Source: Verrucomicrobiales bacterium (GTDB lineage Bacteria > Verrucomicrobiota > Verrucomicrobiia > Verrucomicrobiales > V1-33). From it: a stretch of DNA of 64,000 bases. The notes beneath the pieces were generated by a model that was not told where the DNA came from, made no database searches, and saw only the letters and a program-made list of their open reading frames with translations. The stretch lies in NCBI GenBank assembly GCA_035550135.1, contig DASZQB010000120.1, positions 8,785 to 72,784 on the forward strand. Reading direction: 5' to 3'. Shown in pieces: positions 43,809 to 57,148 of the stretch. The position numbers were made by a program, and so were the translations under genes. Within the stretch, counting starts at the first letter, position 1, and each line of letters begins with the position of its first letter.

Positions 43809-45737
43809 ATGCCCTCCCTCGCGCCGCGCATCATCGGGACCGCCGGTCATATCGATCACGGCAAGAGCACGCTGGTGGAGGCGCTCACCGGCACGAATCC
43901 GGACCGGCTGCCGGAGGAAATCAAACGGGGGCTGACGATAGAACTGGGTTTTGCCCATCTTTCCCTAACGGACCCGTTGCATCCCGGAAACGGCTGGCAC
44001 GCGGGACTCGTGGATGTGCCGGGCCATGCCGATTACGTGCGCAACATGCTGGCGGGGCTTGGGCACGTGGATGCCGCGCTGCTGGTGGTGGCGGCGGATG
44101 ACGGATGGATGCCGCAAACGGAGGAGCACTTTGAGATTCTGCTCCATCTTCACATCGATCATGGGGTGGTGGCCCTGACAAAAAGTGATCTGCTGGCCGA
44201 CCGCGGCACGGCAGAGGAGAACATCCGCCTCAAACTGGCCGGCACGCCGTGGGCGGAGGCTCCGGTGGTTCCCGTCTGCGCGCTGGGCGGAGAAGGCCTC
44301 GATGAACTGCGCGCGGCGCTGGCCGAAGTCCTGCGCGCTGCGCCGCTTCCGCGGGATGTTAGAAAACCGAGACTGCAGGTGGACCGCGTGTTTTCGCCGC
44401 GCGGCGCGGGAACGGTGGTCACCGGAACTTTGAGCGGAGGCGTGTTGCAGACGGGCGAGGACATCTTTGTGCAGCCGGGCGGTTTGTCAGGAAGAATCCG
44501 CGGACTGCAAAATCACGGTCGCGCGCTGGAAACGGCGCAGCCGGGCATGCGCACCGCGGCCCGGCTGGCCTCCATCGAAATCGCGCATGATGGAGCGGGT
44601 GAGGGGGCGTGGCGCGGGCATACGGTCACCACCATTCCAGGCGGTGCCTCAGGCGTGCTGCATGCGCAGTTCACCCGGCTGGACCGCCGTCCTGATCCGC
44701 CGCCCCTGCGGCACGGATGCAAGGTCTGGCTGCACCACGGCACCTCCAGCCACGAGGCCCGCGTGTATCTCGCGGGTGTTAGAGAACTGCTCCCTGGTCA
44801 TTCCTGCATTGGCGAACTCCGCACGCGCGCGCCGGTCTTCGCCTTCACCGGCGACCGGTTTGTGCTGCGCGATTTTTCACGCCGTCACACGCTCGCAGGA
44901 GGACTGGTGCTGGAAACCTCCGCCCGCCCGCGGGCATGGAAACAGCCCCGCTGGCTGCATTGTCTCGAACAGTGGGCCGCTCATCCTGACAATGTTTCCG
45001 TCCGGGTTGCCGGCCTTCTGGAACGGGACGGCTGTTTCAAAAAGGAGGGATTGCTGCAGCTCTCCCGTTTCACCGGTGCAGAGATCGCCGCCGCGGTGGA
45101 TGCGCTGCCTGACAAAGTGGTGTGCGGAGACTGGATTGTCTCTGCGCCGCGCTGGCAGGCCGTGCTCGCGGCTGCGGAGGAAATTATCCGGGCTCATCAT
45201 CGTCTGCATCCCTCCGAACCGGGACAGAAATTGAGCGACTTCCGCACGGCGCTGCTACCTCACCTGCCGGATACCGCGCTGAGCGAACCGCTCATCAATG
45301 CTCTCGTGACACGCGGTTTTGTGCGCGGGCAGGGCGTCATCCGCGCCGGAGATTTCCATGCGGAAATTTCCCCGGCGCAGCGCGCCTCCTGCGATCAGCT
45401 TCGCGCGGTCCTTGCCGCTGATAAGTACAGCCCGCCAAATCTCTCCACCTTTGTCCAGACGGCACAGGACCGCGAAGCACTGCAAATCCTTCTCAACAGC
45501 CGCGAAGTCACCCGCCTCAATGAGGAAACCGTCATGCTCACCGACGCCCTCCTCGTGCTCAAGCAACTCATCATCGCTCACTTGCGCCGTCAGGGCCGTG
45601 AAACCATCGCTGGCTTGCGCGACGCCCTCGGAGGCACCCGCCGCATCCTCGTTCCTGTCTGCGAACTCCTGGACCGCGAGCGCATTACAAGGCGGGAAGG
45701 CGATTGGCGCAGCCTCATTTCCCGGAACGGCGCATGA
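43809..45737 (+). CDS. selB: Selenocysteine-specific elongation factor
   Basis: GTAGHIDHGKSTLV..LTG..PDRLPEEIKRGLTIELG, DVPGH, MPQTEEH, C-terminal winged-helix LD..RITRREGDWR. Confidence 0.93.
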   Translation: MPSLAPRIIGTAGHIDHGKSTLVEALTGTNPDRLPEEIKRGLTIELGFAHLSLTDPLHPGNGWHAGLVDVPGHADYVRNMLAGLGHVDAALLVVAADDGWMPQTEEHFEILLHLHIDHGVVALTKSDLLADRGTAEENIRLKLAGTPWAEAPVVPVCALGGEGLDELRAALAEVLRAAPLPRDVRKPRLQVDRVFSPRGAGTVVTGTLSGGVLQTGEDIFVQPGGLSGRIRGLQNHGRALETAQPGMRTAARLASIEIAHDGAGEGAWRGHTVTTIPGGASGVLHAQFTRLDRRPDPPPLRHGCKVWLHHGTSSHEARVYLAGVRELLPGHSCIGELRTRAPVFAFTGDRFVLRDFSRRHTLAGGLVLETSARPRAWKQPRWLHCLEQWAAHPDNVSVRVAGLLERDGCFKKEGLLQLSRFTGAEIAAAVDALPDKVVCGDWIVSAPRWQAVLAAAEEIIRAHHRLHPSEPGQKLSDFRTALLPHLPDTALSEPLINALVTRGFVRGQGVIRAGDFHAEISPAQRASCDQLRAVLAADKYSPPNLSTFVQTAQDREALQILLNSREVTRLNEETVMLTDALLVLKQLIIAHLRRQGRETIAGLRDALGGTRRILVPVCELLDRERITRREGDWRSLISRNGA

Positions 45738-49126: not shown

Positions 49127-49236
49127 TTACGTTAGGGAATCCTCCGGAAGTCGGAGGGGTCCGTTCTCACCACGCCGGGAGATTTTCAGACTTCACACTG
49201 CCAAATCATGTATGACCCCGGCAGGCCGCAGCACCT

Positions 49237-49324
49237 GCAGCAAGCCCGTCCCGGCCTTGTGAGCAGGCGGCCGCATGTTCTCAGCGTGACGAAGTCGCCC
49301 TCAAGGCCGGGACGGCCTTGCTAC
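49237..49324. repeat. GTAG-type REP doublet
   Basis: GCAGCAAGCCCGTCCCGGCCTTG ... CAAGGCCGGGACGGCCTTGCTAC (reverse complement begins GTAGCAAGGCC). Confidence 0.75.
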
Positions 49325-49381
49325 GGGTTTTCGCATGCCTAACAGAGATGTGCGTCGGCCCTGTGAAACACAGGTGAAAGC

Positions 49382-49517
49382 GATCGTACTGACTGACTGA
49401 AACCCTATACGTTCAGGCAGTCAGTACGATTGCTCCATGGAGAAACCGGGAATACCCGGAAAACCGGGAAAACCGTCGGCCTGGGGAGGTTTTCCCGGTA
49501 TTCCCGGTTTTCTCCTG
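49382..49517 (+). repeat. Left terminal inverted repeat (hairpin + iterons)
   Basis: 49382-49465 matches the reverse complement of 51497-51581 with about 4 differences; 49488-49517 matches the reverse complement of 51412-51441 exactly (30 bp). Confidence 0.92.
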
Positions 49518-49674
49518 CGGGTTTGGGACCGGATCAGGCATTCAGCCGGCCTGTGCATCCGCGCAGGGGTTATCGAGCGTGTTTTTGCTGTATCGATAAT
49601 TCAGTCTTACCAGGTAATCCCGGGTAAGACCGGCAGGGAATTGAAGCCGCATCGTTTTGCAGGAAAATGCAGCC

Positions 49675-51228
49675 ATGCCCAACCCTAACTGCTTTATTTC
49701 GCCGGATTCACCCCCTGTCACACCGCCTGCAGGGAAAACGCCGTTCCATACCCCGATACTGGGAAGGAAGTACACGCCTGCTGCTGAAGAATGTTCGCTC
49801 CTGCTGGCAAATGCGCCGGAGGCAGGCGGGGAAACAGCAGAACTGCATCCGCCATTTCCCCTGCAGGCATTGCCGGAATTCATGCGGCGCATGGCCGAGG
49901 CTGGAGCCATGGCCTCCAACAGCCCGGTGACGCTCACCGCTCCGCTGGTGCTGGCGGCACACAGCCTGGCGCTGGGAGCGGGCGTGGAGTTGAGCTGCGG
50001 CGGCGTCCTGCGCTGCCGGGGAAATCTGCATCTTCTCGGCATAGGCGAGAGCGGTACCGGCAAGAGCGAGGCGGCCAGAATCATCTTTGCACCCCTCTAT
50101 GAATTGCAGCGCGAACGGCTGGAAGCATGGGACAGCAAGGGCCGATCGGAACAAAAGGCGCGCATTGTCATGCTGAAGAACAGAGAGAAGGAAGTGCAGA
50201 ATGATCCCCTAGCTCTGGCATCTGTCATCCAGGCGCGGGAAATGGCGGAGCTGAAAGCATCCGATGGCGGGCGTCCGCTGCTCTTTGCCAGCAATGTCAC
50301 GCGTGAAGCATTGGCCTCTGCGCTGGCCATGGGCCCGGGACAGGCCTTTGCCGTGCTGAATCCCGATGCCCGCGGACTGCTGGGCGTTATTGCAGGCAAA
50401 TATTCGTCTGGCAAGTCTTCGGACGAAGACATCTATCTGGCAGGCTTTTCCGGCGATGCCATGTCGTCGCTGCGCGTTGGTTCCGGTTTTGTCCATCTGC
50501 ACTCTCCCTGCCTTACCACGTGCATGCTGATCCAGCCCGACGCTTTCGACAGCCTGCGGAAAAAGGCCATTTTTGCAGAGAGCGGATGGCTGCAGCGGAA
50601 TCTCGTTTTTGACAGCCATGCTGAATTTGATCCTCTGCCTGCAATCCCTCCTGTATTGCCATATGATATTGCCACTGCATGGAAAGAGCACATACGCGAT
50701 CTGGTGGAAATGGTGCGCGATGCCCGCGAGACCACGCTGATAGAGCCCACCATGCTTGCTTCCTCCATGATGCTGGAACGCGCCAATGCCGTCCGTGCCC
50801 GCATCAAGAGCGGCGAACTCCGCGATATGGCCAGCTTTGCCTGCCGCTGGGCCGAGCAGGCCAACCGCATCGCGCTCAATCTCCATGCCGCCCGTTATCC
50901 CGATCCCCGCGAAGCCGCTCTCTGCTATGTCTCAGACACCACCATTGAAAAAGCATGGACCATTGCCGGATGGTTTGCGCAGGAGCAGGTGCGCCTGCTC
51001 AGCAGCATGCGTGAAGAAAAGCGCCACGCCCGCTGCGAGCGGCTGTTGACCATCCTCAGCCGGCAGGGACCGTCCAAACTGCTGCCGCGGTGGAAGCTGA
51101 TCAAGATCGGCTTCACCGAGGAGGAACTCCTCCTGCTGGCCAGACTCTATCCCTCCCGCCTCCTCGCCGGCGAACTCCCGAACGGTCCCGCTGGCGGCCG
51201 CCCCCTCAAGTGGATCCGCGCGCTCTGA
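49675..51228 (+). CDS. DUF3987 / YfjI-family P-loop NTPase (helicase-like)
   Basis: PFPLQALPEFM, NLHLLGIGESGTGKSEAA...APL, NVTREALASAL, IQPD, SGWLQR, RIALNLH. Confidence 0.85.
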   Translation: MPNPNCFISPDSPPVTPPAGKTPFHTPILGRKYTPAAEECSLLLANAPEAGGETAELHPPFPLQALPEFMRRMAEAGAMASNSPVTLTAPLVLAAHSLALGAGVELSCGGVLRCRGNLHLLGIGESGTGKSEAARIIFAPLYELQRERLEAWDSKGRSEQKARIVMLKNREKEVQNDPLALASVIQAREMAELKASDGGRPLLFASNVTREALASALAMGPGQAFAVLNPDARGLLGVIAGKYSSGKSSDEDIYLAGFSGDAMSSLRVGSGFVHLHSPCLTTCMLIQPDAFDSLRKKAIFAESGWLQRNLVFDSHAEFDPLPAIPPVLPYDIATAWKEHIRDLVEMVRDARETTLIEPTMLASSMMLERANAVRARIKSGELRDMASFACRWAEQANRIALNLHAARYPDPREAALCYVSDTTIEKAWTIAGWFAQEQVRLLSSMREEKRHARCERLLTILSRQGPSKLLPRWKLIKIGFTEEELLLLARLYPSRLLAGELPNGPAGGRPLKWIRAL

Positions 51229-51243
51229 GCCTCTCCAAACACC

Positions 51244-51275
51244 CCATGGAGAAAACCGGGAAAACCGGGAAAACC
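51244..51275 (+). repeat. Extra internal copy of the iteron arm
   Basis: CCATGGAGAAAACCGGGAAAACCGGGAAAACC, 16 bp after the DUF3987 stop codon. Confidence 0.85.
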
Positions 51276-51313
51276 TCCCTGCTTTCGCGGGTTTCTCCAG
51301 CGAGGTGCATACT

Positions 51314-51395
51314 TACTCCTACTCCTACTCTTACTCTTACTCCCACAATTTTGAGAGTAAGAGTATGAGTAAGAGTAGGGAGTATGAGCAGGAGC
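51314..51395. repeat. Inverted hexamer array (TACTCY)n / (GAGTAN)n
   Basis: TACTCCTACTCCTACTCTTACTCTTACTCC...GAGTAAGAGTATGAGTAAGAGTAGGGAGTATGAG. Confidence 0.85.
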
Positions 51396-51411
51396 GGTTG
51401 GCCAAACACCC

Positions 51412-51581
51412 CAGGAGAAAACCGGGAATACCGGGAAAACCCCCTGCTGAAGCGTTTTCGCGGTTCTCGGGGTTTTCGGTGCCTGCTTTCGAAGGAGGTT
51501 TTCCCGGTATTCCCGGTTTTCTCCATGGCGCAATCGTACTGACTGCCCGAACGTATAGGGTTTCAGTCAGTCAGTACGATC
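51412..51581 (-). repeat. Right terminal inverted repeat (iterons + hairpin)
   Basis: Mirror image of 49382-49517, with a longer spacer between the iteron arms. Confidence 0.92.
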
Positions 51582-51746
51582 ATTTTTCACCGTGATTTCA
51601 GGAGAGCCGTCATCCCAAGGGCCGGCGGCACATGAATAGAAAGCGGGAAGTGAGACCACACATGAATAAACGGTCGCACCCCATCCGGCGCGGGAATGCT
51701 GTGAATATGGCGGCAGGATTACCGGAAGGCGAAATGCTTCAGATGG

Positions 51747-51950
51747 GAACGGCGAAGCCCGTGGACTTCTGCGGCAGCCTGCTGCCGCTGTTGTGTGCGG
51801 CAGCCCTGCTGCCGGGGTGGCGCGTGCGGTGGCTGCTGAATGCCCGGCGTTGGCCGGATGTCCTTTCTCCTGTCTGCGCCCAGCCCGCCGCAGCAGGCTG
51901 CGGCTCTCACAGCGGCAGCAGGCTGCCGCAGTCCACAGGCTTCGCCGTTC
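51747..51950. repeat. Long imperfect palindrome (REPIN-like)
   Basis: GAACGGCGAAGCCCGTGGAC..TGCGGCAGCCTGCTGCCGCTG pairs with CAGCGGCAGCAGGCTGCCGCAGTCCACAGGCTTCGCCGTTC. Confidence 0.8.
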
Positions 51951-52021
51951 GGTCCGAACCATTCTCACCAGCCAGCGAGACTGTCCTCAGCGTTTTGATA
52001 CGAATTCCCCCAAACGGACCA

Positions 52022-52075
52022 CCGTTGTTTTCGTTAAAAGCTGCCCGGCAGAGGAGAATTCAACGAAAACAACGG
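52022..52075. repeat. 14-bp perfect inverted repeat
   Basis: CCGTTGTTTTCGTT-N26-AACGAAAACAACGG. Confidence 0.7.
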
Positions 52076-52165
52076 CACTGCGTTTTGAGATTAACCCTAT
52101 TTCTCACCGTCCGGGAAAAAACGCATACAGACTGTCCTAACGTCATCACCTTGCAACAACGGTAC

Positions 52166-52249
52166 GTAGAGCGATCTGTGGCGAAGCCCAGTCGCTTTCG
52201 CCTCCATGGCCGCAGCGAAAGCGAGTGGCCTTTGGCACACTCACTCTAC
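52166..52249. repeat. GTAG-type REP doublet, copy 2
   Basis: GTAGAGCGA...AGTCGCTTT...AAAGCGAGTGGCCT...CTCTAC; homologous to 4353-4437. Confidence 0.75.
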
Positions 52250-52307
52250 TGATATTCCCGTGGCAAACGAATTCTGTGAGAAACCCACATTAGAGGCACA
52301 GGCCCGC

Positions 52308-55300
52308 TCACCACGCCGGCACGCGCACCGTGAAAACCGTGCCCTTTCCTGCTTCCGATTCCACTTTGATGCTGCCGTTGTGCAAATCCGCGCAGCGTTT
52401 GATAATAACCAGCCCGAGGCCTGTACCGGGGATTTCGCCGACATTGCTGCCGCGGTGGAAGGCTTCGAACAACTTCGGCTGATCCGCCTCCGGAATGCCG
52501 ATGCCGCTGTCTTTTACCGTGAAGACCACGTCGCGTCCCTCGCGCCGGCCGGTGAAATACACGGATGAGCCGGCGGGCGAATACTTCACGGCATTGCTCA
52601 GGAGATTGGAAAGGATGTGCCGCAGCAGGGCTTCGTCGGCGGTGGCGCCTGACAAGTCGTTCTCCGCGTTCCACGCGATGGGGCATTTGCGGTTCGTGGC
52701 GGAGTGCGATTCGTCGGTGAGCTTGCGGGCGAGCGTATCGAGATCGAGCGGCGCGGCTTTGTAGGCAAGCTTGCCGGCATCCACGCGGCCCAGCACGAGC
52801 ACCTGTTCCATGAGACCGGCCATGTTGCGCGTGGCCGTGTGGATGTCGTCGTAGAGCTGTTCCCGCTGCTCCTGATCCAGCTTGTCTCCGTAGTGGCGCA
52901 TGAGTTCGACAGCGCTCATGGTAATGCCCAGCGGCGTGCGGAATTCGTGACTGACGGTGTTCACGAAGCGGCTCTTCAATTCGCTGACTTCGCGCTCTGC
53001 GTTCAGTTCGAGGGAGCGTTTGGAAGCGATTTCTGTCGCTTCCACAAACTCCCGTGTGAGGCGGCTTTGACGCCGCAGGACCAGGGCTCCAAGAATGGCG
53101 GCGATGCTGACGGGCACCAGACCTAACAGACCGGTGGTCCACGCGCTGGAAGGGCTGTCGGCGATGAATTTTGCCGCGGCGGGCAGCGGCCAGTCGAGAT
53201 GCATGGCCGCAAGTTCCTGACGAAGTTCCACGACATCGAGCACCATGAGTTTTCCCTCCGCGCCGCCGGCGAACAGCTTGCGGCCGTCCGCGGAAAAGCG
53301 CAGGCCCGCGACCATGCCAAGCCGCGCGGCATTGATGGACGTCAGGACTTCCCCGGTCGCGGGAGCCACGAGTTCGATGCGGTCCACGTCCTGCGTCCAT
53401 GCGAGCAGCGAGCCGTCGCCGGAGAAAGCGGCGGCGCCGAAATTCGAGAGGAGTTCCGGGCGCGCTTTGCTCCACACGGGTTCCCAATCGGCGGTGGACC
53501 AAAGCCGGGCCGTGCGCGCGCCCACGGTGATCAGCCAGCGGCTGTCAGGACTGAAGGCAAGGTGTGCGTAGGTGGCCTTGAGCTTGATGACCGTTTCGCC
53601 GGTGCGCGCATCCCAGATGGTGGGATTCGCGCCGGGCGTTTCGCGTCCCGCCGCCACCCAGCGGCCATCCGGACTGATGGAGAAAACGCCGGAGCCCCGC
53701 GCCGAGGCCGGGCCGGGGATGTTGCTGTGCATGTGCATGAAGCCGTCCAGCTTTACCGGCGTGTTAGGGTTTTCCGTGTCCACCACCATCATTGCGCCGC
53801 CGGTGCCGGCGACCGCGGCGTAGCGGCCATCCGCACTGAAGCTCGCCGTCCATGGTGTGAAGCCCGCGGGCAGCGGCAGTGCGCCGCAGGGTTTCGCGAG
53901 CGACGCAGCGTCCAGCGGAGCATCGAGCGGGAGCCTGTGAAATGTTAGGCCATCCGCGCCGGCGGTCCAGAATTCCGGCCGCACCGGGTGCAGCCCCGCG
54001 CACACTTTGTCCGCAGTGGGCACGAAGACCGACGCATTCCCATGCTCCAGATCCAGCACTTCATAACCGTCCTGCGCCATCCATGCCGGCGGTGCCCATA
54101 CGAGCCAGCGGCCGTCCGCCGAGAGATCGCTTTGCCACACGGTCGCACGTTCCACCGCCTTTCCCTGGATGTAATGCGTCGCTGTGGGCTGCACGATTCG
54201 CGAGACACTAACCGTCCGTCCCAGGAGACCTCCGCCGATGCGGTCGCCGCGATTGGAAAAATCCAGCGCCAGCAGACCGCCCGTCTCGCAGAGCAGGCGC
54301 GCCGTGGAGGCGTCCCAGAGCCGCGTCCGGCCATCGATGCCGGACCCCATGAGCAGCGAGCCGTCCGGACTGAAGCGCAGACTCCACGCGTTGAGCGCCT
54401 TGCCGCCCATTTGCACCACGCGCCCGGATTTCACCTCCAGCACGGAGACGGAGAAGTTATCGGCAGTGAAGGAAAGCCGCTCGCCCTGTGCATCCCAGCG
54501 CATGGACTGCACCAGCGCCGGCGCTTTCACCGTGTGCCGCACCGTGGCTGTGGCCAGATCCAGGATGGTCACCTCCGCGCCCTGATACCACGCCAGCAAA
54601 TCCCCGCGCGGACTGAGGACGAAGCGGTTTCCCAAACCCTCCCACGTCACCGTGTCCGGCACGCCGGGCACCTTCCGCAACCCGCCTTTCTCCACGTCGT
54701 AGAGGACATGCACGCCATCGCCGCCCTTCAGGGCCACGCAGAGGAAGCGGTCGTCCGCGGTGAACGTGACGGGCCACGAGGAGGCGCGGAAGCCGCTCAC
54801 ATCGATCGTGCGCACCGGTTCGCCGGTGGCCGCATCCCATAGAATGTATCCACCCGCATTGTAACGAATGATGATGTATTTTCCGGTCGCGGAGAACATG
54901 AAATCGCCGATGTTGGCGTCCTTTGGCAGGGACGCCGGCATGGGAAATTCGCGCACCAGCGAGTTGTCCTCCATGCGGAAGAGGGAGAGGACGTCCGGTT
55001 TGTAGCGGACGAGGTATTGCTCGAGCGCGGGATCGAAGGACAGGCCGTAGGCGCCCGGCTGCAGCGTCCACTCGCGTTCCATGACGAGATCGCGCAGACC
55101 CAGCGCCGCCACCGCTTCATTGCGCAACTCCTGCGAAGGACGAATGGCCGCCGCCGTGCGCACGGCCTCCAGCGCCGCCGCGCGATGACCCGTCTGCGTG
55201 CTGAGAATCTCGGCGCGCGCCTGCGCCAGCGAGGCCTTCCACAGCCGCTCCGTCGCCTCCGCCTCCGCCGTTTCCGCCCGCGCCTGATTCTGCTGCGCCC

Positions 55301-55463
55301 GGCGGCTCATCATCACCATGGCCCCGCCCAGCAGCACGACGACACCGAGAATCACCGCCATCGCGCGATTCGCCCGCAGCACACTGCGCCGGACGAACTC
55401 GCGGCGTTCCGCAAATTCCGCCGCCTGCACTGACAATTCCGGTTTCGGCTCAACGGGCTGCAC
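52308..55463 (-). CDS. Sensor histidine kinase with WD40 beta-propeller region between two TM segments
   Basis: TM1 AMAVILGVVVLLGGAM; repeated FSPDG/FSADG blades; TM2 GLLGLVPVSIAAILGALVL; H-box SHEFRTPL; NLLSNAVKYS, DSGIGI, GTGLGL; start chosen at GTG 55463. Confidence 0.9.
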   Translation of the reverse strand: MQPVEPKPELSVQAAEFAERREFVRRSVLRANRAMAVILGVVVLLGGAMVMMSRRAQQNQARAETAEAEATERLWKASLAQARAEILSTQTGHRAAALEAVRTAAAIRPSQELRNEAVAALGLRDLVMEREWTLQPGAYGLSFDPALEQYLVRYKPDVLSLFRMEDNSLVREFPMPASLPKDANIGDFMFSATGKYIIIRYNAGGYILWDAATGEPVRTIDVSGFRASSWPVTFTADDRFLCVALKGGDGVHVLYDVEKGGLRKVPGVPDTVTWEGLGNRFVLSPRGDLLAWYQGAEVTILDLATATVRHTVKAPALVQSMRWDAQGERLSFTADNFSVSVLEVKSGRVVQMGGKALNAWSLRFSPDGSLLMGSGIDGRTRLWDASTARLLCETGGLLALDFSNRGDRIGGGLLGRTVSVSRIVQPTATHYIQGKAVERATVWQSDLSADGRWLVWAPPAWMAQDGYEVLDLEHGNASVFVPTADKVCAGLHPVRPEFWTAGADGLTFHRLPLDAPLDAASLAKPCGALPLPAGFTPWTASFSADGRYAAVAGTGGAMMVVDTENPNTPVKLDGFMHMHSNIPGPASARGSGVFSISPDGRWVAAGRETPGANPTIWDARTGETVIKLKATYAHLAFSPDSRWLITVGARTARLWSTADWEPVWSKARPELLSNFGAAAFSGDGSLLAWTQDVDRIELVAPATGEVLTSINAARLGMVAGLRFSADGRKLFAGGAEGKLMVLDVVELRQELAAMHLDWPLPAAAKFIADSPSSAWTTGLLGLVPVSIAAILGALVLRRQSRLTREFVEATEIASKRSLELNAEREVSELKSRFVNTVSHEFRTPLGITMSAVELMRHYGDKLDQEQREQLYDDIHTATRNMAGLMEQVLVLGRVDAGKLAYKAAPLDLDTLARKLTDESHSATNRKCPIAWNAENDLSGATADEALLRHILSNLLSNAVKYSPAGSSVYFTGRREGRDVVFTVKDSGIGIPEADQPKLFEAFHRGSNVGEIPGTGLGLVIIKRCADLHNGSIKVESEAGKGTVFTVRVPAW

Positions 55464-55541
55464 AGCCGCCACGTTTCCCGTTAGAACAGGAAACGGCAAG
55501 ACCAACTGCGTTTCGCCGCCTCCGACTTTGGCCGGATGCGC

Positions 55542-55767
55542 CGTCGAACCACGGAGTGGTTCTCCGTGAGTAGCCCGGGGTGAACGCAGTGAACCCCGGG
55601 TTGGAGCCGCTAACAGAGTTCCACCACAGCGTGGTGGCCCTGACAGAACGGCGCTTCCTCCGCATTGGACCACCGCGCTGTGGTGGATGCGACGTACGGG
55701 GCCGTTACCCGGGGTTCACTCCGTTCACCCCGGGCTATTCATGGGGGAACCACTCCGTGGTTCGACG
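55542..55767. repeat. 226-bp palindrome of two inverted tripartite REP-like units
   Basis: CGTCGAACCACGGAGTGGTTC...TAGCCCGGGGTGAACGCAGTGAACCCCGGG...CCACCACAGCGTGGTGG, mirrored in the right half. Confidence 0.85.
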
Positions 55768-55895
55768 CTTAACAGATACCATCCGGAACGGGTCGAATCT
55801 CCCGCCGGAGTGAGGGTGATTCCGTGCGTTGATCCGCCGCGCTTTGTTTCCTGCGCGGCAGGACGATACAAAATCACACGGCAGGATACGCTTCT

Positions 55896-56309
55896 TCACG
55901 CCGCTGCTGCTGCGCCGGCCTTCATGGCCGTCTCCACGGCGCGGTAGAGCCCGGCCCACGCGGCCTGCACTTCCGGAATCCATCGCTTGCCCATGACCTC
56001 TGAAAGCATTCCGAGCAGCGCCCGTCCCACAGTTTCGTAGTGCGCGTCCTTCACGCCATAGCCCTTGTGCCTTGCGCCCATGGCGCGCAATTCAGCCTCC
56101 AGCTTCTCCGGTCGCTCGAGCAGGATGATGAGCACGCCCAGCATGTCCGTGAGCTTTCGCGCCTGGATTTCGATATTGTTCCCGAACATGGGCCGCAGCG
56201 CGGGATCGAGCGCGAAGAGCCGCTGGTAAAAGACCAGTGCCGCGACGTGTCCGCTGCGCTGCACTTCAGCAAAGCTCGTGCGGATCAGGTAGGTTTGCTG
56301 CGGGTCCAT
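55896..56309 (-). CDS. Single-domain globin (flavohemoglobin-type globin domain)
   Basis: FYQRLFALDPALRPMF, QARKL, MGARHKGYGVKDAHYETVGRALL, AW. Confidence 0.92.
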   Translation of the reverse strand: MDPQQTYLIRTSFAEVQRSGHVAALVFYQRLFALDPALRPMFGNNIEIQARKLTDMLGVLIILLERPEKLEAELRAMGARHKGYGVKDAHYETVGRALLGMLSEVMGKRWIPEVQAAWAGLYRAVETAMKAGAAAAA

Positions 56310-56399
56310 TTGCAATCATAAAACACCCGCGCGAAGAAAACGGGTATCCGACTTTAGTTGGATTGGAAGTTGCCGGCTTCCGGGCATACTCGCGCCGCC

Positions 56400-57059
56400 A
56401 TGAAAAAGAAAATCCTCATCATTGAAGATCAGGCCCCCATGCGGCGGAACATCGGGCTCATGCTCCAAATGGAGGGGTACGAAGTCGTGAGCGCCGAAAA
56501 TGGACGCACCGGCGTCGAAATGGCACGCAGGGAAAAGCCGGACCTGATTCTCTGCGATGTGATGATGCCGGAGATGGATGGCTACGCCGTAGTGCAGTCC
56601 CTGCGCGCGGACGACGCTTTCTCGACCACTCCGTTCGTTTTCCTAACCGCCAAGAGCGACCGCGGCGATATCCGCATCGGCATGAATTTCGGCGCCGACG
56701 ACTACCTGACAAAACCCGTGGTGCGCGATGACCTCCTCGCTGCCGTTTCCATGCGGCTCTCCCGTGCTGAGGCGGTGCAGGATCGCATCGATGCCGCCGC
56801 CGCCAGCGCCGGATTCAATCCGGACTTCAGCAGCCACGAGCCACTGCAGCGGGCGCTCAACATCACGCCCCGCGAAGCTGAAGTCCTCCTGTGGGTCGCC
56901 CAGGGCAAGAGCAACGCCGACGTCGCCGTCATTCTCGGCATGAGCGAAAAAACCGCCAAGCAACACCTCGGCAGCGTCTTCGAAAAAATCGGCGTCGAAA
57001 ACCGCAACGCCGCCGCCATGCGCGCCGTCGAGATCCTCAGCAGCCCCGCCGCGAGCTGA
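56400..57059 (+). CDS. Response regulator (REC + LuxR-type HTH)
   Basis: KILIIED, LCDVMMPEMDG, FLTAK, GADDYLTKP; ITPREAEVLLWVAQGKSNADVAVIL. Confidence 0.94.
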   Translation: MKKKILIIEDQAPMRRNIGLMLQMEGYEVVSAENGRTGVEMARREKPDLILCDVMMPEMDGYAVVQSLRADDAFSTTPFVFLTAKSDRGDIRIGMNFGADDYLTKPVVRDDLLAAVSMRLSRAEAVQDRIDAAAASAGFNPDFSSHEPLQRALNITPREAEVLLWVAQGKSNADVAVILGMSEKTAKQHLGSVFEKIGVENRNAAAMRAVEILSSPAAS

Positions 57060-57073
57060 CCGGGTGGTCGCAT

Positions 57074-57148
57074 TGGAGCCGGTGGGCGGAATCGAACCGC
57101 CGACCAGCGCATTACGAATGCGCTGCTCTACCGCTGAGCTACACCGGC
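57074..57148 (-). tRNA. tRNA-Thr (CGT)
   Basis: GCCGGTGTAGCTCAGCGGTAGAGCAGCGCATT-CGT-AATGCGCTGGTCGGCGGTTCGATTCCGCCCACCGGCTCCA cloverleaf with encoded CCA. Confidence 0.97.

Follow-up and report, generated by a model that had tools for sequence, protein, structure and literature searches.

A lone DUF3987 helicase gene between inverted, origin-type palindromes in a Verrucomicrobiales genome

Introduction

DUF3987 proteins are described as MCM-related replicative helicases with a C-terminal winged helix, usually encoded beside a primase (PMC4889955), and one member was reported, in a study available in part, to unwind DNA in the 5'-3' direction (PMC11724360). According to the available portion of a preprint, the origins of Staphylococcus aureus pathogenicity islands (SaPIs) consist of oppositely facing iterons located 3' of the helicase gene and bound by the winged helix of the helicase (bioRxiv 10.64898/2026.10.17.759575). 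Here, we analyzed a stretch of 64,000 nucleotides from a Verrucomicrobiales bacterium (assembly GCA_035550135.1, contig DASZQB010000120.1, positions 8,785 to 72,784; hereafter the window, to which all unprefixed positions refer), in which a single DUF3987 gene is enclosed by long inverted repeats (49364–51600; hereafter the unit). The source genome is referred to as G000 and the contig of the window as C120; G006 and G010 are two related genomes.

Replication modules of SaPIs and of phage-inducible chromosomal islands (PICIs) comprise a self-loading helicase, Rep, and an iteron origin 3' of its gene. Like these modules, and like DUF3987 helicases of superfamily 6 such as AgaPH, the unit specifies an MCM-like helicase that ends in a winged helix; as in SaPIs and PICIs, oppositely facing iterons lie 3' of the gene, and its relatives reside in islands with an integrase and a primase. 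It differs from those islands in that it carries neither of these two genes, that its iteron dyad is compact, and that the origin-type palindrome stands at both ends, fused to the palindrome of another helicase and dispersed throughout the genome. A second likeness is to the repetitive extragenic palindromic (REP) sequences that form doublets (REPINs) and depend on REP-associated tyrosine transposases (RAYTs), where, in the parts of the sources available, dispersed and clustered extragenic hairpins flank a cognate low-copy gene under purifying selection, with no target duplication (PMC3116915, PMC3337134, PMC5581495). In contrast to REPIN-RAYT systems, the flanked gene encodes a helicase rather than an HUH transposase, the repeats stem from predicted origins, copies number about 20 instead of hundreds, and the terminal tetranucleotide tag is missing. 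Lastly, insertion sequences (IS) with DDE transposases and their miniature inverted-repeat transposable elements (MITEs) share with our case the terminal inverted repeats, the presence at several loci and, in a sister family described below, deleted copies that keep both ends, but not the ragged ends, nor the lack of a transposase and of a target-site duplication. Because the cognate gene encodes a helicase, and neither a transposase nor a target duplication was found, we place the unit outside both the REPIN-RAYT and the IS-MITE groups. In the literature searched, which included few subscription papers and no supplements, we found no account of dispersed repeats derived from origins or of DUF3987 genes between inverted origins.

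The unit descends from a PICI-like island and is no longer one. Its palindromes are likely origins that turned into REP- or MITE-like repeats, probably moved in trans. Our preferred reading, to which we assign a probability of roughly 0.45, is that the unit is an integrase-less remnant of the replication module of an integrative element, whose helicase-opened origin hairpins were moved in trans.

Results and Discussion

The features on which this reading is based are the following:

49657..51228, + strand: DUF3987 gene, 523 aa from TTG or 517 aa from the ATG at 49675
49364..49527: left end, an inverted copy of the composite right end, made up of an outer 15 bp, hairpin H and a 9-bp iteron dyad
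49379..49434: hairpin H, with 4-bp periodic arms and a 10-nt asymmetric loop (fold z -7.5); predicted origin of an AAA_25-family helicase
49433..49527: left iteron dyad of facing ACCGGGAA[A/T] units; predicted origin of the DUF3987 helicase
51402..51528: right iteron dyad
51530..51600: right copy of hairpin H plus its outer segment, inverted with respect to the left one

The inverted repeat reported in an earlier note on this DNA, made from the letters alone, is genuine and longer than first described. Positions 49382–49465 match the reverse complement of 51497–51581 with 3 substitutions and 1 gap over 85 columns, 49488–49517 are identical to the inverted 51412–51441 at 30 of 30 positions, and the weaker similarity noted further out indeed reaches 49364 and 51600 (91% across 105 nt by blastn). 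The full repeat comprises 49364–49527 and 51402–51600, including one 35-nt gap region in the spacer, which gives ends of approximately 165 bp (left) and 200 bp (right); its local inverted score was 164, while the highest of 295 random window pairs reached 33. Each end joins two palindromes, which we predict to be the origins of unrelated helicases (DUF3987 and AAA_25). The iteron dyad is compact, with a spacer of about 13 bp and without a long AT-rich core. At the outer boundaries no direct repeat of at least 5 bp was present, in agreement with the absence of a target-site duplication already remarked upon.

Long inverted repeats of about 165 bp with a 33-bp identical stretch might also be those of a cassette flipped by a recombinase, as the earlier note suggested, and unitigs of the source run do break at the repeats. 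Nevertheless, there is no recombinase on the contig and no promoter-like site at the unit ends, the "opposite strand" joints stem from a paralogue on contig C100, and no inversion-specific joint was seen in the assembled contigs, which makes an invertible cassette a very remote prospect.

The DUF3987 gene is the single long open reading frame (ORF) between the ends (Pfam DUF3987, E 1.9e-45, 156 bits vs. a cut-off of 27). As stated earlier, it stands alone: ORF and Pfam analyses detected no transposase, integrase or primase inside the unit, and no tyrosine recombinase (PF00589) was found on contig C120. The predicted structure (pLDDT 82.7, first 62 residues disordered) comprises an MCM-like AAA+ domain at residues ~63–446, a coiled-coil insert and a C-terminal winged helix at 449–523. 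MCM helicases were the top structural matches by two methods (Foldseek; VIA, Z 17.1, rmsd 3.6, 248 aligned), and residues 449–523 matched winged-helix domains (VIA, Z ~7). According to the model, the protein combines an MCM-like helicase with a winged-helix tail, and no stretch is left over that could form a nuclease. The Walker A motif (GESGTGKS) is intact; the Walker B position reads NPD, not DE, in all 7 close homologues; two distant homologues have an N-terminal extension that we read as primase-like.

The lone gene is under purifying selection. Compared with a paralogue on contig C3, non-synonymous and synonymous divergence (dN and dS) amounted to 0.22 and 0.89, respectively, and in X2, an independent metagenome strain, 9 of the 10 differences in codons up to 206 were synonymous (P ~2e-4). 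X2 also holds, at window 49800–49953, a second gene variant with 10 differences in 154 nt, which belongs either to another strain or to a second copy of the gene family of the window (family A).

Homologous DUF3987 loci were retrieved nearly all from Verrucomicrobiota records. Among 41 such loci (a count that leaves out the duplicate L034 and the cut L072; L065 is excluded from the tree), a 3+3 inverted 9-mer dyad was located 3' of the stop codon in 17, with scores of 43–50 out of 54 against a background maximum of 40. The iteron type tracked the protein clades, a pattern which, since kin share labels, is consistent with co-evolution but does not prove it. Since dyads stand 3' of DUF3987 genes and vary in sequence along with the protein tree, the enclosed protein very likely recognizes the ends, as had been proposed. 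In the 22 loci with long flanks, for which 65 of 135 candidate ORFs were scanned, an integrase was detected in 14 and a primase in 8. Of the relatives with known context, the closest (G010, 63%) shows the order integrase, regulator, small ORF, DUF3987, dyad and primase. Because this is the same layout as that of SaPI origins, the dyad is, by position and analogy, likely to be the replication origin of an integrative element.

In the relatives, this putative origin is single. None of the 17 dyad-bearing loci had a second copy in the fetched DNA, which covered at least 1.3 kb upstream in 15 of them, and the dyads were single-copy in G010, G017, G035, G024, G014 (one of two tested) and G022; G032, searched with another genome's origin only, is left out of this set. 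The idea that DUF3987 homologues consistently sit between similar inverted repeats is thus not supported: elsewhere, the dyad occurs once and downstream only. DUF3987 genes were present in 3 of the 14 genomes of the genus (G000, G006 and G010). Metagenome protein scans returned nothing with the single protein as a query, and only distant relatives with an alignment. One pattern match in viral contigs was a chance hit inside a phage structural gene.

The other half of each end, hairpin H, belongs to a different helicase family. Two exact copies occur in G000, and an exact pattern search, which was too strict, gave none in 300 other genomes of the order; blastn then located H in G010 and G006, directly 3' of AAA_25 helicase genes. 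Of 14 AAA_25 loci, 7 are followed by H variants that share its centre (6 clear, 1 decayed), and all of these belong to the close clade. By position and analogy, H is a likely replication origin of AAA_25-helicase integrative elements. H-family palindromes occupy at least 11 sites in G000, a minimum given the limited sensitivity of the palindrome scans. On C134, a second H-iteron fusion joins another H variant to an iteron arm of family B, the sister family treated below. In G010, 20 H copies form 5 clusters, 2 of which lie 3' of an AAA_25 gene. At one G010 locus (L097:2992-7240), two cargo genes, presumably ATPase-like, lie between same-orientation H copies 3' of a primase and an AAA_25 gene, adjoining a gene that we take to be recD2-like.

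Strong hairpins at both ends might suggest an integrated hairpin-ended linear replicon with H as telomeres. Yet the end homology does not stop at H but runs on for about 15 bp, H itself normally stands 3' of AAA_25 genes and has scattered copies in G010, the unit encodes no resolvase or polymerase (with no search for a telomere resolvase made elsewhere in the genome), and no relative was found in viral contigs. With end homology reaching past the hairpin, and with ordinary chromosomal surroundings that strain X2 shares, such a replicon is the least credible of the explanations weighed here.

Both kinds of palindrome are dispersed. The iterons of G000 amounted to 38 arms in 21 rows, or about 20 loci, as two of the rows probably overlap at a contig break; a reversed-pattern control gave 0. 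Five rows follow a DUF3987 gene or remnant, five are upstream and inverted, one is a gene-free two-ended unit and ten lie elsewhere. The ends are therefore not the unique termini implied by the earlier note, since their iteron part is dispersed and their hairpin part is another helicase family's palindrome, itself dispersed in G010. In G006, intergenic strings of three different orphan palindromes were found at L086:1360-1760 and L171:385-796, with no helicase gene in the fetched DNA, each palindrome matching a helicase type encoded elsewhere in G006. Further integrase-less primase or helicase modules occur in G000 at C17:2761-5200, C34:44341-47900, C43:79185-80450 and probably C15:148834-151530; the C34 module begins on the left with a B-type half dyad, and two dyads of another type follow its helicase.

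A further possibility is that the extra palindromes are functional cis sites rather than transposon ends, acting as a second replication site, as spare chromosomal origins or as decoys that titrate the helicases of incoming islands. Phage P4 offers a precedent, in that a second site, crr, is needed besides ori for replication. The orphan dyads are well conserved, the strings of G006 match three helicase types of the same genome, and the gene is under selection without an integrase. On the other hand, the islands of relatives have a single dyad, the host encodes its own DnaB, and many copies are only halves, so that we regard a cis role as quite improbable.

G000 also contains a sister family, B, whose units have two ends and no integrase; they are located at five loci, four of which carry internal deletions. 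The copy on C3 encodes a protein 71% identical to that of the window in the order inverted dyad, REP, leader, small ORF (which we take to be Xis-like), DUF3987 and dyad. Its right end continues on C23 or C109, both joins being possible in the assembly, and the C23 version is followed by a primase 54% identical to that of G010. The internally deleted copies lie on C16, C88 and C21, the last with both ends on one contig, and on C86, where a unit of about 300 bp has kept its two ends but no more than the final bases of the gene. The left dyad is inverted relative to the right one in C3, C16, C88 and C21. The left flanks of the B copies differ, except for those of C3 and C16, which are alike; no integrase (PF00589) was detected on family B contigs, and no target-site duplication was found at C21, while at C86 only repeat-internal matches were obtained. 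The B copies are patchworks of inserted and deleted segments, a pattern that suggests recombination among them or, partly, assembly error. The earlier assignment to a class of mobile elements stands in part: a two-ended, integrase-less family with deleted derivatives does exist in G000, although its ends are not unique termini.

Family B invites readings in which the helicase itself drives the copying. In one of them, a transposase-free kind of selfish DNA, integrase-less helicases would act in a RAYT-like manner and copy their own origins and the genes bracketed by them through helicase-driven local replication; we hold this to be doubtful, and, if true, it would represent a mode of transposition without a transposase. 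Spelled out as a self-copying, origin-ended element, the helicase would load on both inverted origins with a primase supplied in trans, the displaced strand would pair as a panhandle, and re-entry would take place by template switching or recombination at origin or REP copies, again with no transposase. Families A and B both have an inverted left origin with iterons matched to their own gene; B occurs at five loci with both ends retained and the interior deleted; a cognate primase follows one B right end on C23; ragged ends without a target duplication fit recombination; and the lone gene is under purifying selection. Against this, the two-ended form is known from one genome only, strung and fused orphan palindromes of several unrelated helicases are not explained by a system specific to one helicase, and no free or circular form was seen in the contigs. 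Taken together, we consider this version unlikely.

A candidate mover in trans is provided by Y1 transposases. For genes of one subgroup in G000, G006 and G010, an origin-type palindrome was found within ~400 bp at 4 of the 6 examined: G000 C90 and C134, G006 C697 (copies on both sides) and G010 C3, but not at the two on G010 C5. In four other genomes, 0 of 7 genes of the same subgroup had an adjacent origin-type palindrome; these counts leave out five further loci with other subtypes. A search with Rfam identified Acido-Lenti-1 (RF01687) beside H copies at two G010 loci, and nothing above threshold in four other loci scanned. The subgroup carries the Y---Q--HH signature, which is that of TnpA-Y1 subclass 1.2 in the available text of its description (PMC6006769). 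We regard TnpA-Y1 subclass 1.2 and Acido-Lenti-1 as candidate helpers that are not part of the unit.

Under the preferred reading, that of a replication-module remnant with origins moved in trans, a predicted DUF3987 origin would have been fused to the origin of a second helicase family and then copied, inverted, to the other side of the gene. The winged-helix tail would bind the 9-bp iterons and the helicase would melt the dyad, after which the melted hairpin DNA could be cut and pasted by host HUH transposases of the Y1 or REP type. Recombination between copies would reshuffle the palindromes and, at times, take along a whole gene enclosed by two of them. The helicase would serve to mark and open the ends without cutting or joining them. 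These findings bear on the emergence and mobility of REP-like repeats: they give a traceable source for bacterial palindromic repeats, namely predicted origins of integrative elements, for each of which the same genome still encodes a matching helicase. Founder sequence, likely binding protein and deleted two-ended derivatives are available together, which makes binding and mobility directly testable.

Several observations weigh against this reading. The status of the palindromes as origins is deduced from position and analogy, and 24 of the 41 homologous loci have no high-scoring dyad. Orphan copies are ragged, being halves or including a few bases of the gene end, unlike precise transposase cuts, and the dyad and H palindromes lack the GTAG/CGTC-type tags that mark REP-type ends. 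The family A gene of the window is single-copy in G000. No Y1 gene or Acido-Lenti-1 (Rfam) was detected near the unit's own ends, Y1 genes are present in 14 of 14 genomes of the genus, so that their presence alone cannot explain the pattern, and their adjacency may reflect insertion of Y1 elements at hairpins instead of hairpin movement. Finally, another REP was found in 12 of the 21 origin-bearing intergenic regions vs. 4.2 expected, an enrichment inflated by a library picked from repeats near these same loci.

In a further alternative, the palindromes are passive passengers, moved as members of REP clusters or as lookalikes of REP hairpins, with the inversion arising by chance and the helicase kept for an unrelated host function. 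In favour of this, G000 is rich in REP-like families, REP clusters lie on both flanks of the unit, and in tandem units (C100; G010 C5) copies of the origins are interspersed among hexamer, heptamer and other repeats. It is at odds with the inverted two-ended layout with cognate iterons shared by two independent families, with the retention of both ends in deleted derivatives, and with the 9 of 21 origin-bearing intergenic regions that have no library REP; we judge it improbable.

Additional Observations

Further features of the unit and its flanks are listed below.

49604..49631: GGT-N3-ACC tandem motif in the leader, also found 5' of other lone helicase genes
51235..51298: iteron dyad at the ancestral place directly 3' of the stop codon, right arm decayed
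51313..51380: GAGTAA-type hexamer palindrome inserted in the right end, a dispersed repeat with 108 arrays genome-wide
49233..49363: left flank, REP doublet and terminal repeat of an IS-derived miniature element, stopping exactly at the left boundary
51747..52255: right flank, two more dispersed REP doublets, GTGG- and GTAG-tagged

The decayed third dyad, the hexamer palindrome and the abutting miniature element had not been described in the earlier note. As the left boundary falls precisely where the terminal repeat of the miniature element stops, this element may have truncated the original left end. Miniature elements of this kind, with IS terminal repeats around a REP doublet, occur at window 49233–49363, at G000:C8:66728-66893 and at other sites, with 28 terminal-repeat matches in the genome; their source is presumably an ISAs1-like IS. 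Tandem repeats that pair a single iteron arm with a GAGTAA hexamer palindrome, with a period of 146–166 bp, were observed at G000:C100:3915-4301 and window 51235–51528, and the C100 array was also found in strain X2.

The GGT-N3-ACC motif had 9 intergenic matches in G000, with sites at G000:C43:79042, C15:151506, C46:49527, C134:61922 and C21:302672, and a further one at L111. In G000 only, it also lies about 80 bp 5' of recA. A host SOS box was rejected, as the motif is missing before recA in 12 of 12 other genomes of the genus. A reading of the 9-mers as repeats belonging to a GxxExxY nuclease was likewise discarded, since the sole such gene has no flanking repeats.

With regard to the history of the site, the left junction and a portion of the gene are present here in strain X2, which also has the right arm. 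An apparent empty site in X2 (joint of 49363 to 52157) was explained by a paralogous repeat pair on C54, and the search for empty-site alleles proposed earlier gave no exact empty site; neither an empty allele nor an inversion nor a free or circular form was seen in the assembled contigs. Contig depth was slightly higher inside the unit (13.9 and 13.2 vs. 10.8, 9.5 and 7.1) and was not used, contig depth not being copy number. In genome G012, the kinase and FG-GAP genes have homologues (47% and 41%, respectively) that adjoin in the same order, together with a short leader match, and a different, transposase-like insertion without DUF3987 lies between them; G012 is too distant to set the junctions. 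Elsewhere in the window, 43809–45737 presumably encodes a SelB-like elongation factor, and the region to the right of the unit (52308–57059) holds a beta-propeller histidine kinase, a globin-like small gene and a response regulator cluster, followed by a tRNA gene at 57077–57148.

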